The position numbers were made by a program. Shown here in pieces: positions 15,001 through 33,000 of a stretch of DNA of 64,000 nucleotides; within the stretch, counting starts at the first letter, position 1; each line of letters opens with the position of its first letter. This DNA comes from an uncultured Spirochaetota bacterium (GTDB lineage: Bacteria > Spirochaetota > Brevinematia > Brevinematales > JAOACQ01), in contig CAWAOD010000014.1 in the NCBI GenBank assembly GCA_963783575.1, positions 1-64,000 of the forward strand, given 5' to 3'.

Positions 15001-18000
15001 CGCCCCTATTTATATGGGGGAATTCGGCAGCATCAGGTATGCTTTTGAGTATAGCAGAGGCGCGCTTGATTGGGTTTCGGATGTTATGGATGCCTGCATC
15101 GAGCGCGGAATCAATTATAATTATCGTGATTATTATAGCGAATATTTCGGTTTATACCTGCCCGATATTAACGGAATTCATGGAATGAATTTCAATAAAC
15201 CTTTATCTGAGCTTTTTTTCGGAAACAAGCCGGCGAGCAGAAATGATTTATTGATAGGAGCTGAGTTTCTTAATCGAGCTCAATTCTGTTTTTAGCGGCT
15301 GTTTTTTGATAAATATGAGAAATATGGGTTTCCACAGTTTTAATGGAGATAAAAAGCTTTTCCGCAATTTGTTCATAAGTCTTCTGATCCAGCAGCAGAG
15401 ATATGATATCCTTTTCTCTTTTGCTTATGCCATATTCTTCAATAAAACTTTCCACTATTATTAAGGAATGCGGTGCAAAGCTAATTTTACTGTAATAATT
15501 GAAGATGGTGATGATGCAGAATATGTTCCAGCATAAATAGAACATTGTCATGGCTATGCCGCGGATAAAAATCATCTGCGGCATTCTGAACGGGAAGAGG
15601 TATTCCAGCGCGATCAACGGAATAAATATACTTAAGAAAACCCTTGTAAACACCGCCATTTTTTTAAACTGCAAATTCCTGATTTTTTTATAATGAAAGA
15701 TGATTAATAAATAGAAGTAAATGAAAATTATAAAACTTATGGGGTTCACAAAATAATAGCTGATTTCTGAAAGAAGGTAAAATATTTTCTGGATAGATTG
15801 GGATATAAAAAAAGGGACCGGGATTGAAAGCAGAATTAATGCGGAAATTATTCCGAATACGCGCCTGTGAATCCGGTTAAAGGGAATTTCCAGAAGAAAA
15901 TGGGAAAAAAAGCTGAAGAAGTAAATATAAACCGCGTTCCATAGGAAAAGCGAAATCGTAATAACAAAAAATATCATAAACATAAGCCCATACTGCGGAA
16001 GAAAAAGATTATAAAGGTTTGAAAGGATTGAAACCTCGATATAATGCTGAATTATGCGGGTAATAGTCCAGTAACTTATCAGTATTGACAGAATGAAAGT
16101 ATAGAGAAAAAGCTTCATACCGTTGTGAAGATAGGTAAGAAAAAGCAGTAATAAACTCGAAATCCCCAGAACAAATGTTGCCAGGTAAAAAAACATTAGC
16201 AGATGGTTCATAGTTTATTCTCATCCCAATATTTCAAAAGCCATTTTTTAAATTTATGTTATTAATTCCAATATGGGTAATTCCATTATATTAATAGTGT
16301 AGTTTATGTATGAATTTAGAACTGCCCATATATTAATACAATTTGTAGAAAATATCCACTGGAATAGCCTTATATAAGAATTAATGGTTACAAGTAGAAT
16401 TTTTTCCTTAAATAATGCTACTATCAGGGTCTACCCTGAGAAAATGTATTAAAAAATCAGGTTCCCCCCCCGATTGTTTTTTATATTGATACAGGATATT
16501 ATTTTGCTGATACAACAAAACAATAATTGTATGGATTAGGATTAAGTCAATAATTAAACTAAAAAAGCATATAATCCCGAATTTATATAAGAAAGGAGAA
16601 ACCCTATGAGGAATATTTTAAAGATGAGATATTCAAAGAAACGGCTTTTATTTTCATATATTTTGACAGTAATTATTAGTCTGTCTTCCTGCATTAATTT
16701 AGAGCAATTCTATACCGAACCTGATGAACCTGCTATTGTAAGATTGCCTGTTCAACAGGAAAATCTCCCTTATACAAATGCAGGGGTTCCGGGAGTCTAC
16801 CCGGAAGGTTCACCCGTTGCCAGGTACGGCAAACTTAAAGTAGTTGGTACTCAGCTTTGCGATGAAAAAAGCAATCCCATACAGCTTCGGGGACTATTCT
16901 TACGCGGCTTAAACTATGAAGCGAAATTTATCAACTATGAAGCTATTTCCTATCTTTCAAAAAAATGGAAAATGGATGTATTTAGAATTCCACTCTGGCC
17001 GGCTGGCGGAGTTTGGGGCAGCGGTGCATATGCTGTTATTGAACCCGGATATCTGGATAATCCGGCTCTTGAAAAATATATAAAGGATGCTGTGAGAATC
17101 ACAGAAGAATGCGGAATATACTGCATTATCGATTGGCAAATCCTCTTTGACGGCGATCCGAATTTGCATAAGATTAACGCTCATGATTTCTTTAAAAGAA
17201 TGGCATTTCTATATGGAGAGAAAAAACATGTTATTTATGAGATCTGTAATGAACCCAATCATGTTAAATGGAAAAGCAGTATAAAACCTTATGCCGAGTA
17301 TATTATACCTGCAATCCGAGCTGGCGATTCCAATGCACTGATAATCGTCGGGACCGAGTTCTGGAGTCTGGATCAGCGCCGCACCGCCGCCGATCCCCTT
17401 AAATTTGATAATATTATGTACACCTCTCATTTTTATGCCGGTAATCCCCTCTCGTTCACAAACCGGATTTCATCGGCTTTATCCAATATCGCCATTTTCT
17501 GCACCGAATGGGGGGTATGCGCCACGGGAGCGGATACATCATCCCCACTTATGCTTAAAAACGCCAGAACCTGGGTGGATTTTCTGAATAGTAAGAATAT
17601 CAGCTGGTGCAACTATGCGCTGGCCGACAACCTATATGAGACGGCGGCATTTTTAAGGAACAGGGCCAAAACGAACGGCGGCTGGGAAGATAAAGATTTA
17701 ACCGAATCCGGAAAATTTGTAAGAGACTACCTGACAAACCGGTAAAAGGAGGAATTAATGAAAATTTTAACTAAATTTATGAAATGGCGGTCATTAATAC
17801 TGATATCTTTGTTTTTTACTTTGTGGTTTTTTTGTTATGCTTGCGGCATATTTGTCAGACCGGCGGAAGTTGTTAAAACCGCTCCTTTGCTTTCTCAAAG
17901 CAATTCGTTTTTGAATGACGGGCTTGTCCGGGTCGGATTTTCAGCAATGCAGGCAGAGCCGGAGGATAAGGAAATGTACCGGATGATTGATGATGTTGTC

Positions 18001-30000: not shown

Positions 30001-33000
30001 GCTGGCTTCGATAATAAAAACTTTGCTGCCGGAATCTTTTTTATCCAATTTTATCGGCCAGACCAACCCGGCTTATATTGTTTTTTCCTCACTTATTTCT
30101 ATTCCCACTTACATTTGCGGAGGAGCATCATTATCATTTTTGGGTTCCTTAGCGCAAATTGGTTTTTCACCCGGAATGATCGTTGCTTTTATTATTGCCG
30201 GCCCGGCTACTCGAATCCAAAATCTTGCCGCGTTCAGTTCCCTGATTAAAAAAAGGTTTGTGCTTTTATTTACTTTGTTTATATTTGTTTATGCCTCCAT
30301 AATCGGAATTTTGTACAGCACTATATTTACTTGACGGCTTAACAATCTTTGATAATGTATATTTGTTATTATTTATCAGGGTTTTATTCTGTATTTTAGT
30401 TTATTACAAAAAAAGCGATTCTAATTTATATATTTTATACCAACTGTGTCTTTTTTTGTGATTTTTCAAACCTTTGATAAGTAAGTTAAGCTCGTAGCTA
30501 ACCGTGGGACTTTCATTAAAAAGTTTGTTTGTCAGGAAATACCGCCCCGACGAATCGAGGCGGTTTAATTTATTTTGATTATAACTCAATTTAGTAAGTA
30601 GTCGCAGCTACTGAACTAATACTTACGGTAACCGCGACAAAAACTCCATTCCCGTAGGCTAATGAAAACCAGTCGGCTGATTTTGGAAGAGCTTGTGCCG
30701 TCCAAGTTATTCCGTCGGGAGAACTCGCCGCCCTTATACTAGGACCCATAGAAACTGCGACAAAATGTCCGTTGCCATAGATTACCGAAGACCAGTTAGC
30801 GGAGCTAGGAAGGGTTCGGGCTGTCCAGTTTATCCCGTCGGGAGATGTCGCCGCATTCGCGCCTCCCTCGGAAATCACCACAAAATTCCCGTTACCATAT
30901 GTGACTGAAGACCAGACAGAGGCGCTAGGAAGAGTTCTGGGAGTCCAGTTAATACCGTCGGGAGATGTCGCCGCAGTCGCGGTGCTATATGCGATAGCCA
31001 CAAAAAGTCCATTCCCGTAAGTTACTGAAAACCAGTTAACTGCGTTCGGAAGAGTTCTAAGAGTCCAGTTAATACCGTCGGGAGATGTCGCCGCAGTCGT
31101 GCTGTTAAATGCGATAGCCACAAAAAGTCCATTCCCGTATGTGACTGAAGACCAGACAGAGGCGCTAGGAAGGGTTCTGGGAGTCCAGTTAATACCGTCG
31201 GGGGAAGTCATAACGGTTGTGCTGTTATATGCTACAGCTACAAAAAGTCCATTTCCGTATGTTATTGAAGACCAATTCGCAGTGCTGCTTGGGAGGGTTC
31301 GGGCAGTCCAGTTTATACCGTCGGGAGATGTCGCTGTCACAGAGATGTTATTTGCGACAGCTACAAAAAGTCCGTTCCCATAGGTTACTGAATACCAATC
31401 GGCAGATCTCGGCAGGGTTTGGGCAGTCCAGCTCAAAACCATCCAGAAAGCATAGACTGTAATATTTGTTTTAACCTCCGTACCTGATAAGAACTCTGTT
31501 CCGCCGCCGTTCGGTGCCGTATACCACCCACTGAAGTAATAACCCGCTTTAACCGGCATTGCCGGTAGCGTAACGACATTTGTCGCGGGCGCTGTAACAG
31601 TAATACTTTGCGGACTAGCCGGAGTATCCGCTCCTTGGCTGTCAAAAGTTACAGTATAAGAATTAATAGTCCATACCGCGTATAGGATAATGTCGGATGT
31701 ACCCATTTGAAAGGCATTAACAAGAGTTAGCGGGTAGACGGTACCAGTCCCGTCGGCCTTCGTATTCCAGCCTGTGAGGGTATACCCTGTTCTGAATAAT
31801 CCCCCCGGATTGCCGGGAAGAGTAATAAAATCTCCCTGCTGATATTTTGTATTATCAACCGGTACGCTTCCGCCGGTCGCTCCGCTAGCGATGAAAGTAA
31901 CAGTATATGTGGGATTTTGAGTCCAAACCGCGTAAAGAGTGACATTGGCCGAGGCCGATCATGAATGTCGCTCCGCCTGAATAAGAGGTTCCAGTCCCAT
32001 CGGCTTTAGTGTTCCAGCCTGCGAATGAATAACCTGGGTTGACCATTCCTCCATTATTCCCCAGTACCGTAACTGATAATCCTGGTATATAATTGTTGCC
32101 GTCGGTCGGGGCGCTGCCGCCACTCCCGGTAGCAATATAAGTAACGGTATATGTCGGATTTTGGGTCCATACCGCGTAAAGGTTAACATTGGCCGAACCC
32201 ATAGTGAATGTCGCCCCGCCGGCGTAGCCGGTTCCAGTCCCGTCGGCTTTTGTATTCCAGCCCGCGAATGAATAACCAGTTCTAACAAGACCGTTAATAT
32301 TACCAAGCGAAGTGACTGTTGCTCCTGCAAGGTAATTGTTATTATCATTCGGTACTCCTCCACTTGTCGCTCCGTTTGCAATATAAATAACATTGTAGAC
32401 GTGCTTTTGGGTCCATATAGCGTAAAACGTGATGCCAGACGAACCCATCGTGAATATTGACCCGCCTGTATAAGCGGTACCTGTGCCATCGGCTTTAGTA
32501 TTCCAGCCGGCAAAGTAATAACCGGGATTAACCATACCACCGTTGTTGCCCAGCACGGTGACTGATGCCCCCTGTATGTAGTTGTTACCGTCGGTAGGTG
32601 CGCTTCCACTAGTCCCGGTAGCGACATAAGTAACGGTATAAGTTGGATTTTGTGTCCAAACCGCGTATAGGTTAACATTGGCTGAACCCATTGTGAATGT
32701 TGATCCTCCTGCAAAAGCGCTCCCTGTCCCGTCGGCTTTAGTATTCCAGCCGATGAACGTATAACCTGTTCTCACCAGGTTTCCTGCGTTATAGGAAATA
32801 GTTACTGTCGCTCCCTGCAGGTAATTGTTGTTGTCTGACGGAACACTTCCACCGGTTGCTCCGTTTGCAATATAAATAACATTGTAGACATGCTTTTGAC
32901 TCCATACCGCATAGAGGTTAACGTTGGCAGAACCCATAGTGAATATTGATCCGCCTGCAAAAGAGGTTCCAGTTCCGTCGGCTTTAGTATTCCAGCCCGC

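Follow-up and report, generated by a model that had tools for sequence, protein, structure and literature searches.

A tandem array of five exported DUF362 lipoproteins with a LarA-like cofactor domain and an ArsP-family permease partner

The array and its neighbours

The window analysed here—64,000 nucleotides of contig CAWAOD010000014.1 from an uncultured Spirochaetota bacterium—contains a same-strand run of DUF362 and glycoside-hydrolase genes, flanked by a divergent regulator gene. The features are:

15270..16211, minus strand: LuxR-family regulator, membrane-bound and pointing away from the array; C-terminal GerE match and hydrophobic N-terminus
16606..17745, plus strand: GH5a, GH5 endoglucanase-like lipoprotein (PF00150, E 1e-45)
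17758..19338, plus strand: p1, DUF362 lipoprotein, 526 aa, a separate lineage; motif H256/K266/H286
19388..21103, plus strand: p2, DUF362 lipoprotein, 571 aa; motif H268/K278/H299
21158..22888, plus strand: p3, DUF362 lipoprotein, 576 aa, modelled; LarA-N-like domain 68-386, Ig/FN3-like domain 484-576
22936..24352, plus strand: clan-A glycoside-hydrolase-like lipoprotein (GH39/GH79-like) in two ORFs, split near 23555
24449..26144, plus strand: p4, DUF362 lipoprotein; frameshift near 26030, inside the Ig domain
26528..27643, plus strand: GH5b, paralogue of GH5a (74% identical) that lacks the catalytic nucleophile
27669..29382, plus strand: p5, DUF362 lipoprotein with 82% identity to p2; reading frame broken near 27923
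29420..30334, plus strand: ArsP_1 (DUF318)-family permease (PF03773, E 3e-36) with invariant cysteines C67 and C233

The first-pass annotation described five DUF362 paralogues on one strand, alternating with glycoside-hydrolase genes. All five are present, but the alternation is not: the order is GH5-D-D-D-GH-D-GH5-D-permease (D = DUF362), with three glycoside-hydrolase genes and a closing ArsP-family permease that the annotation did not include. Frameshifts split three genes (the GH39/GH79-like gene, p4, and p5) rather than the two reported. In a near-identical contig, two extra bases bring the halves of the GH39/GH79-like gene into one frame; the split near 23555 is probably an assembly error. 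An orthologue of p4 (P0002) is intact and 92% identical. The single DNA sequencing run spans short stretches only, outside the frameshifts of p4 and p5. The array was not found among 11 other genomes of the family, and a metagenome scan returned no close relative carrying it. Promoter and terminator scans gave counts near chance (45 vs 35.3+/-5.9 and 14 vs 15.9+/-4.5, respectively). Similar LuxR-type regulators (GerE) adjoin other spirochaete DUF362 copies, at loci L055, L061, and L067 and beside this genome's own copy on contig C15.

Family, export, and selection

Each of the five proteins exceeds the Pfam cut-off for DUF362 (PF04015), with 48.8-64.5 bits against 24; p1 is about 40% identical to p2-p5. 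Among p2-p5, dN/dS is 0.13-0.19, and these copies are under purifying selection. Lipoprotein signals are recognized by a basic n-region, a hydrophobic h-region, and a lipobox cysteine; by inspection all five N-termini have this form, as had been proposed, with lipoboxes LISC (p2), IISC (p3), LISC (p4), and LTSC (p5) and a non-canonical CYAC in p1. Such a leader is present in only 24 of 104 close relatives—most are leaderless, and leaderless relatives occur within small-molecule metabolic clusters. A profile of the wider exported class found no match at E<=1e-60 in 349 genomes from the same class as G045, in a run that carried no positive control. Large insertions distinguish the subfamily, among them a DxDxDG loop found in 78 of 94 aligned sequences.

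A LarA-like cofactor domain without the rest of LarA

The model of p3 is of high confidence (pLDDT 88.7), and five LarA-family chains head its structural matches (Z 13.5-15.7), in agreement with the earlier description. The LarA fold proposed for these proteins is found in part: p3 corresponds to the N-terminal cofactor domain (LarA 31-270, Z 14.1-15.8; rmsd 3.3-3.8 over ~223 residues), while the rest of LarA is unmatched. Only five of the 48,161 chains compared with this region reach Z>=5, all from the LarA family. The alignments to all five chains stop at LarA residues 259-285, and the C-terminal substrate-recognition domain of LarA (Tyr294, Gln295, Lys298) has no counterpart in them; beyond the LarA-like domain, the p3 model continues in loops and short helices, followed by an Ig domain. 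This last domain had been called FN3. It does have FN3-like structural matches (CbhA modules, Z 9.7-9.8), but other Ig folds match equally well (Z 9-10.5 for both), no Pfam fn3 match was found, and a domain scan assigns the corresponding domain of relatives to Big_7. At the sequence level, neither Lar_N (PF09861) nor the NCBIfam NPN-isomerase models match p1-p5 at E<=0.1, searches of PDB sequences with p3 and with the subfamily profile did not return LarA, and the clusters matched in the ESM Atlas were all DUF362, below 0.9.

Conserved pocket residues

The conservation claimed for the putative pocket stands: in p3 numbering K278 (94/94 aligned sequences) and H298 are invariant, and H268 is nearly so (93/94). 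The equivalences to LarA that follow come from profile alignments rather than coordinate-level superposition, with LarA numbering anchored by alignment. The subfamily profile compared directly with LarA gives a probability of only 2.5%, so the wider class of exported DUF362 proteins was used as a bridge; this class aligns to the LarA profile at 95.5% probability and without gaps across His174, Ser180, and Lys184. At this level, the proposed counterparts of His174 and Lys184 hold in exported DUF362 and, at low probability, in the subfamily itself, and Ser180 is replaced by Thr. The third residue, an invariant histidine and plausible His200 equivalent, is harder to place. It aligns to LarA His200 in the low-probability subfamily comparison and not in the wider-class alignment, and the Lys-to-His spacing said to match LarA differs from it: 20-21 residues here, 16 in LarA, and 13-16 for DUF362 proteins of the ordinary kind.

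In the column neighbouring LarA His108, only 2 of the 94 sequences have His, and in the wider class His does not figure among the most frequent residues either. R122 is conserved in 91 of 94 sequences; at this position a transitive and gapped alignment pairs an Asn of the wider class with LarA Arg75. As the first-pass annotation cautioned, the motif is not special to the array—all DUF362 classes examined carry His-Lys-His. LarA-type racemization by p1-p5 is doubtful because they lack both His108 and the substrate domain at the C-terminus. The two residues after the motif His vary across p1-p5 (VI, LV, VM, LS, IV), positions that in LarA set specificity according to the available text of PMC11851776.

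Glycoside hydrolases in the run

GH5a keeps both catalytic glutamates and the NEP and TEWG motifs relative to 6gjf, with the His of its DWH motif replaced by Gln. GH5b has lost the nucleophile (Glu->Ala, with Arg->Glu, Asn->Tyr, and Tyr->Phe) and, judged by these residues, is probably non-catalytic; its dN/dS against GH5a is 0.19. The third gene has a PF11790 match below the usual strength, with GH39/GH79 look-alikes as leads. The suggestion that the DUF362 proteins act with polysaccharide breakdown is unsupported for the subfamily, since GH5 matches occur in none of 100 related DUF362 loci (only 42 of which have at least 1.5 kb on both sides); PF00150 is likewise missing from the 128 neighbours scanned. 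The cellulase link is local to this array. Among distant exported DUF362 proteins, 6 of the 58 long proteins scanned bear CBM9 or CBM4_9. One GH9 gene lies near the genome's own DUF362 copy on C15.

An ArsP-family permease as the recurrent partner

Exported DUF362 proteins have a subgroup of ArsP-family permeases, not hydrolases, as their conserved partner. The array permease scores 125.7 bits against Pfam ArsP_1 (PF03773; cut-off 32.3), falls below the NCBIfam cut-offs for SO_0444 (98.7/300 bits) and SaoE (94.9/325 bits), and has C-T-I-G in place of the Cys-Ser-Cys motif. Permeases of this type adjoin 8 of 22 leader-bearing DUF362 loci, one locus cut at its 5' end, and none of 66 leaderless loci; counted by host, a module-type permease occurs in 8 of 14 with the exported form versus 0 of 24 with the leaderless form. 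The L109 permease was excluded from the count because it lies on the opposite strand and carries the ars-type CSC motif. At the other 14 leader-bearing loci, several cut by contig ends, no permease lies within 3 kb, and no module-type permease was detected in 6 of the 14 hosts.

In the reverse test, where permeases were found first, an exported DUF362 gene was adjacent in five of six, including three further DUF362 classes or loci. One of the four new matches, on a 3.4-kb contig, has no adjoining DUF362. No DUF362 lies beside the G258 permease included in the tree. The subgroup is present in 7 of 251 genomes, and its loci are few, mostly from spirochaetes and not independent, with five of nine used to build the profile. 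The available text of PMC7176098 and 10.1101/2022.07.06.499078 describes the ArsP family as homologous to NiCoT and including metal exporters. The pairing hints at an undescribed route of cofactor loading outside the cell.

lar genes and the nickel-pincer cofactor

The genome encodes larE-larB-larC, as the first-pass annotation noted (C14, ~440041-442965, all above NCBIfam cut-offs), together with a nickel/cobalt ECF transporter. The pathway already has a cytoplasmic client here, a LarA-group protein that belongs to the NCBIfam group-22 NPN isomerases. LarC occurs in 36 of 50 subfamily hosts, and both LarB and LarC are missing in 13 of 50, mostly incomplete assemblies. In a phylum sample of 301 genomes, DUF362 is found in 183 and LarC in 109; 81 of the 183 DUF362-bearing genomes lack LarC, 102 of the 109 LarC genomes have DUF362, and all six subfamily hosts in the sample have LarC. 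Among hosts of the exported DUF362 plus permease pair, no lar genes were detected in 6 of 11, two of these being 99% complete, and in G167 larE-larB-larC lies two genes upstream of the pair. A curated NPN epimerase family member occurs in a lar-negative genome (G042), so a lack of lar genes does not settle the matter. At first the permease seemed confined to hosts without lar genes (Fisher p 0.007, with one genome entered twice); this apparent anti-correlation was rejected when added loci gave five lar-positive and six lar-negative hosts. Of the proposal that p1-p5 are exported nickel-pincer isomerases, the export part is borne out; isomerization of the LarA type sits poorly with the missing His108 and substrate domain. 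Pincer use by p1-p5 is unproven, given a clan-wide motif and the hosts without lar genes.

Proposed function and alternative explanations

We favour, at roughly even odds (about 0.5), a reading in which p1-p5 are exported hydride-transfer enzymes of the LarA clan, supplied with a metal or cofactor across the membrane by the permease. These membrane-anchored, extracytoplasmic proteins would hold a nucleotide-type and/or metal cofactor much as LarA does, with Lys as anchor, His as ligand, and Thr in place of Ser180. The chemistry would be hydride transfer other than LarA racemization, because the pocket has one catalytic His and the LarA C-terminal domain is missing: oxidation, disproportionation, or a non-LarA epimerization of small hydroxy compounds. 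Lipoproteins cross the membrane unfolded; therefore, the cofactor or its metal would be delivered separately, by the two-cysteine permease at the operon end, and need not be the LarBCE-made pincer. The export signal, the LarA N-terminal fold, the conserved His/Thr/Lys/His pocket, purifying selection, and the recurrent permease pairing support this reading. As parts of the same explanation, the five copies would have expanded in this lineage and come to differ in their pocket residues, and the hydrolase genes would be local, co-regulated neighbours.

It is unlikely that p1-p5 are instead NPN isomerases, loaded by LarBCE, that epimerize sugars or sugar acids freed by the neighbouring hydrolases. 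The larEBC genes and ECF transporter, the frequency of LarC in subfamily hosts (and 6/6 against 109/301 overall in the phylum sample), the presence of DUF362 in nearly all LarC genomes, and the G167 arrangement all fit such an enzyme; R122 may correspond to Arg75, the G042 case weakens arguments from lar absence, and carbohydrate-binding modules occur on distant exported DUF362 proteins, as in the available text of PMC5742341. These points are set against hosts that lack lar genes, a motif shared by the clan, the absent His108 and C-terminal domain, a client already present in the cytoplasm, and hydrolases that do not recur at related loci and include a GH5 without its nucleophile. A bolder version, in which exported DUF362 proteins are true pincer enzymes outside the cytoplasm, the ArsP subgroup moves the organometallic cofactor, and lar-negative species use what producers export, is quite improbable; if true, DUF362 would be a second pincer-enzyme family and the permease the first pincer trafficking route.

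The proteins might also be non-enzymatic surface capture proteins that pick up a metal, or free pincer from other cells, in the LarA-like pocket and pass it to an importing permease, or whose bound state is sensed by the LuxR regulator. Keeping only the cofactor-binding domain of LarA would suit this role, as would the lipoprotein-plus-permease layout usual in uptake systems, the failure to demonstrate NPN synthesis in over half of module hosts, and the retention in the run of a probably non-catalytic GH5. We consider it unlikely as well: most close relatives are leaderless and sit among metabolic enzymes, which suggests catalysis, the His174 equivalent is kept, salvage hardly explains why a genome able to make NPN has five diverged copies, and the module is missing from most DUF362 genomes without lar genes. 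Least credible is a locally duplicated, partly decaying lipoprotein island with functionally unlinked genes. Three frameshifts, a probably dead GH5, two duplicated pairs (GH5a/GH5b and p2/p5), and the restriction of the array to this genome among those searched speak for it, but all measurable pairs are under purifying selection, one frameshift is missing from the near-identical contig, the p4 orthologue is intact, and more than one DUF362 class is paired with the permease.

Relation to known systems

The array proteins are a variant of the known LarA/DUF362 clan. With LarA and its homologues (PF09861; 5HUQ, 9EIA, 7S91, 4NAR, 9Q3J) they have the N-terminal cofactor-binding domain in common; they are only 10-15% identical to LarA and differ in a longer Lys-to-His loop, the lipoprotein signal, the C-terminal Ig domain, and the lack of His108, of the substrate domain, and of Lar_N or NCBIfam NPN matches. 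They share the K-x-H...K...H motif with the genome's ferredoxin-fused, COG2768-like, and Tat-type DUF362 members, and unlike other DUF362 proteins they combine large insertions, a lipoprotein anchor, and five tandem copies with no Fe-S domain. Reviews from the research groups that study LarA may have proposed DUF362 as a candidate. The permease resembles ArsP, SO_0444, and SaoE (PF03773) in its conserved cysteines and Pfam match; in contrast to these, C-T/C-M and C-G-G replace C-S-C, and the partner is an exported DUF362 rather than ars genes.

DUF362 and LarA belong to one Pfam clan, CL0471, according to the available text of PMC11770544. The DUF362-CBM9-dockerin proteins of cellulose-fed enrichments (PMC5742341) are likewise modular, apparently exported, and set among plant polysaccharides; the array proteins carry neither CBM nor dockerin, and the available text of that paper draws no link to LarA. 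NphT, an NPN-dependent hydride transferase (PMC13524815), extends His/Lys-anchored pincer chemistry beyond racemization to sugars; it differs in having an aldo-keto reductase fold and a gene beside larBCE, and the terms 'DUF', 'signal peptide', and 'periplasm' do not occur in the available text. No exported enzyme is mentioned in the nickel-pincer papers that were screened for export terms, and neither NPN binding by DUF362 nor a DUF362-ArsP pair is described in the literature searched, which did not extend to subscription journals and supplements.

The widespread DUF362 family, sister to LarA, has no known function, and many larBCE genomes have no known client. With a single soluble lipoprotein domain and a single transporter, the pair of exported protein and permease is small and testable, and identifying the cofactor, whichever it is, would assign one to a large uncharacterized family and a physiological cargo to this permease group. 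Export can also take another form: on contig C9 of the same genome, a DUF362 gene with a Tat signal lies behind tatA-tatC, which, from what is established about the Tat pathway, suggests that members of that class receive their cofactor before they are exported.

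Array organization and gene integrity

The genome comprises 4.9 Mb, and the window is the initial 64 kb of contig C14. The array spans 16606-30334, with a divergent membrane LuxR regulator upstream:

16606-17745, +: GH5a, GH5 gene
17758-19338, +: p1, DUF362 lipoprotein
19388-21103, +: p2, DUF362 lipoprotein
21158-22888, +: p3, DUF362 lipoprotein
22936-24352, +: split hydrolase-like gene
24449-26144, +: p4, DUF362 lipoprotein
26528-27643, +: GH5b, GH5 gene
27669-29382, +: p5, DUF362 lipoprotein
29420-30334, +: ArsP_1 permease

All five paralogues pass the Pfam cut-off for DUF362, and in all eight exported array genes the product starts with a leader that is basic and hydrophobic and has a Cys at its end, as judged by inspection. 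Identity among p2-p5 is 68-82%; p1 is about 40% identical to these and sits on another branch. The array contains two duplicate pairs, GH5a/GH5b and p2/p5, and dN/dS is 0.13-0.19 across the six pairs of p2-p5 (p1 is saturated, so the figures cover these pairs and the GH5 pair). Going by the known roles of GH5 catalytic residues, GH5a keeps both catalytic glutamates; in GH5b, Ala replaces the nucleophile and three further active-site positions are changed. Despite the lost nucleophile, dN/dS between the two is 0.19, and GH5b is possibly a glucan-binding or sensing lipoprotein.

Frameshifts interrupt three array genes, not two as in the first-pass annotation. Assembly error is the likely cause, because a public run yields a contig of nearly the same sequence in which two extra bases put the split hydrolase in frame, and p4 has an intact orthologue (92% identical); reads of that run do not span the p4 and p5 sites. 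Other split genes in the window (1-5534, 8487-10703, 13576-15295, and 37993-46609) include a kinase/sigma-54 activator, a GH43, another GH5, and a GH94 gene resembling cyclic glucan synthase, which would fit frequent indel errors. After the array, 30591-34458 (-) encodes surface proteins that carry Listeria-Bacteroides repeats, Fn3-associated domains, and a region of propeller-like repeats.

Fold and pocket residues

The p3 model has a pLDDT of 88.7, rising to 92 for the catalytic part folded alone. A structure search with this part returned 5 of 48,161 chains at Z>=5, every one of the LarA family (Z 14.1-15.8). The LarA fold claimed earlier is thus borne out, but in the predicted model it covers only the N-terminal cofactor domain—alignments stop at LarA residues 259-285, and p3 has no counterpart in them of the C-terminal domain, which contributes Tyr294, Gln295, and Lys298 according to PMC11851776. 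The p3 segment 484-576 matches the FN3-like fold previously assigned, but other Ig folds fit equally well; since leaderless relatives also carry this domain, it is no argument for carbohydrate binding.

Residues were compared using the LarA of a related locus, which runs collinearly over 1-424 with 2YJG. The match of the subfamily profile to LarA is weak; a profile built from 43 DUF362 proteins that are more distant and for the most part exported matches it at 95.5% probability, ungapped through His174, Ser180 (Thr), and Lys184. In the subfamily alignment K278 and H298 (p3 numbering) are invariant, H268 is present in 93/94, and T274 is always Thr or Ser. The proposed His-Lys-His match to LarA therefore holds for His174 and Lys184 through the wider profile, but the Lys-to-final-His spacing of 20-21 in p1-p5 is longer than in ordinary DUF362 (13-16) or LarA (16); on sequence, H298 is a plausible His200 equivalent whose position the alignment leaves unfixed. 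R122 may stand in for Arg75, and His108 is not conserved (His in 2 of 94 aligned subfamily sequences). All ten DUF362 proteins of differing classes that we compared carry the motif, which therefore marks the clan, not the subfamily. The two residues following the His differ in every paralogue, which would fit different substrates among p1-p5. A DxDxDG loop, presumably of calcium-binding type, occurs in p1-p5 (DYNADG in p2) and in 78/94 subfamily members, leaderless ones included; together with a tree in which methanogen copies nest among exported ones, it hints at an exported ancestor. Residue roles in LarA follow PMC11770544 and PMC12611868, and PMC7583248 suggests that homologues with a single His may perform other hydride chemistry.

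A recurring permease partner

The most useful result is a module of exported DUF362 and ArsP-type permease, for which we found no description in the literature searched (supplements and subscription journals lay outside that search). A permease, not a glycoside hydrolase, is the recurring partner of exported DUF362: after manual checks, an ArsP_1 gene on the same strand was present no more than 3 kb away at 8/22 leader-bearing loci, at one 5'-cut locus, and at 0/66 leaderless loci; none of 11 loci of uncertain leader status had one. Five of these nine permease loci served to build the profile, and six are Pfam-confirmed. PD40 propeller genes adjoin 14/22 leader-bearing and 0/66 leaderless loci. 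A frameshifted sixth relative on contig C15 (L014:8239-12822) follows two PD40 genes and a membrane LuxR regulator, an arrangement typical of spirochaetes.

At the level of whole genomes, permeases of this subgroup (E<1e-45) occur in 8/14 hosts of the exported form versus 0/24 of the leaderless form, and in 7/251 phylum-sample genomes. Conversely, five of six permeases found first adjoin an exported DUF362: in G035 (two contig ends overlapping by 81 bases), in G319 (a second copy), and in G122, G272, and G167 of the phylum sample; that of G258 does not. Two Cys are invariant across nine aligned permeases. The DUF362 partners span different classes, and a quick permease tree (one row mislabelled) groups suggestively by class. 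At L054 and L174 of G035, the DUF362 fusion protein also contains leucine-rich repeats and a Gly-Glu linker and ends in a membrane anchor; the permease comes directly after.

Supply of the pincer cofactor

The first-pass annotation rightly listed larB, larC, and larE, which exceed NCBIfam cut-offs and adjoin a nickel/cobalt ECF transporter; the implied link to exported DUF362 fares less well, as the genome has a cytoplasmic client for the nickel-pincer cofactor (NPN), a group-22 NPN isomerase. Among 50 subfamily hosts (from 52 related genome loci, after dropping a weak partial match and an additional locus in an assembly already counted), LarC occurs in 36, and 13 of the remaining 14 also lack LarB. 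Of 301 phylum-sample genomes, 109 have LarC, 183 DUF362, 102 both, and 81 DUF362 without LarC; the subfamily occurs in six, all with LarC. These counts show an association with lar genes, not a dependence on them. The argument from absence is limited, because most hosts are incomplete assemblies and lar-negative G042 has, directly beside its DUF362, a gene for a member of a curated NPN hexonate-epimerase family. In this single chromosome larB, larC, and larE were not found, making it a possible pincer auxotroph; L062:9968-14372 reads leaderless subfamily member, NPN hexonate-epimerase, altronate dehydratase.

Lar genes occur in five of 11 hosts of the module and were not detected in six, two of which (G319 and G122) are 99% complete. 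In G167, the pair shares its strand with larE-larB-larC, which lies two genes upstream: in L187:4177-11786 the lar genes are followed by a small gene, exported DUF362, permease, a flavodoxin-like protein, and an aldo-keto reductase with a signal peptide. Of all the loci, this one would be best suited to testing for pincer binding.

Leaderless relatives and the hydrolase link

By our own heuristic, a hydrophobic leader is present in 24/104 close relatives with a complete N-terminus, p3 among them; most close relatives are, on this prediction, not exported. Leaderless copies occur in methanogens and Bacillota, beside acetoacetate-decarboxylase-like genes, short-chain dehydrogenases, F420-type oxidoreductases, DHDPS-type aldolases, amidohydrolases, malic enzyme, and sugar transporters. 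The decarboxylase-like genes lie within 4 kb of 21/69 loci classed leaderless (L048-L051, L025-L047; Defluviitaleaceae and methanogens)—a cross-domain pairing. The subfamily gene is single in the five other phylum-sample genomes (split over two contigs in one); one Bacillota locus contains two copies, and each of two public contigs carries two p2-p5-branch members.

Proposed function and alternatives

The first-pass annotation saw p1-p5 as pincer isomerases working with the neighbouring hydrolases. In favour are more distant exported-type DUF362 proteins (hydrophobic N-terminus in 77/95 full-length representatives): 58 long ones picked include nine with a T9SS tail, four with dockerin, six with CBM9 or CBM4_9, and one with a lactonase, and a DUF362-CBM9-dockerin protein is reported from cellulose enrichments in PMC5742341. 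For the subfamily, the coupling to cellulases is not supported: a profile built on the three GH5 sequences in the window matched 0/100 related loci (many with short flanks), and no GH5 occurs among 128 neighbours (hand-edited from 144 listed); one GH9 is located near the C15 copy, beyond its LuxR regulator. We regard this reading as unlikely. The permease pairing could also be read as capture and import by p1-p5, which we hold to be similarly improbable; duplication without functional link, set against dN/dS well below one, seems less probable still.

What p1-p5 have are export signals, the LarA N-domain fold, a conserved pocket, selection, and permease pairing. We favour, at a probability of about 0.5, cofactor-dependent hydride-transfer lipoproteins loaded outside with permease help. 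The pocket would need a cofactor, loaded inside in Tat-type members and outside, aided by the permease, in lipoprotein members; the permease belongs to a family that has NiCoT as a relative and counts exporters of metals and organometals among its members (PMC7176098 and 10.1101/2022.07.06.499078). As only a single catalytic His is present and the substrate domain of LarA is missing, the reaction would most likely be hydride transfer other than two-base racemisation, for which NphT offers a precedent (PMC13524815). Predicted to act like the cofactor half of LarA, p1-p5 share its N-terminal domain but lack the C-terminal substrate domain and His108; by membership tests they are not LarA members, and belong to the DUF362/LarA clan as a variant.

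The same genome has a Tat-signal DUF362: L017:7091-10740 (contig C9, about 556-560 kb) runs tatA-like gene, tatC, Tat-signal DUF362, and NapGH-like 4Fe-4S ferredoxin membrane protein, which suggests a cofactor-loaded DUF362 tied to the quinone pool.
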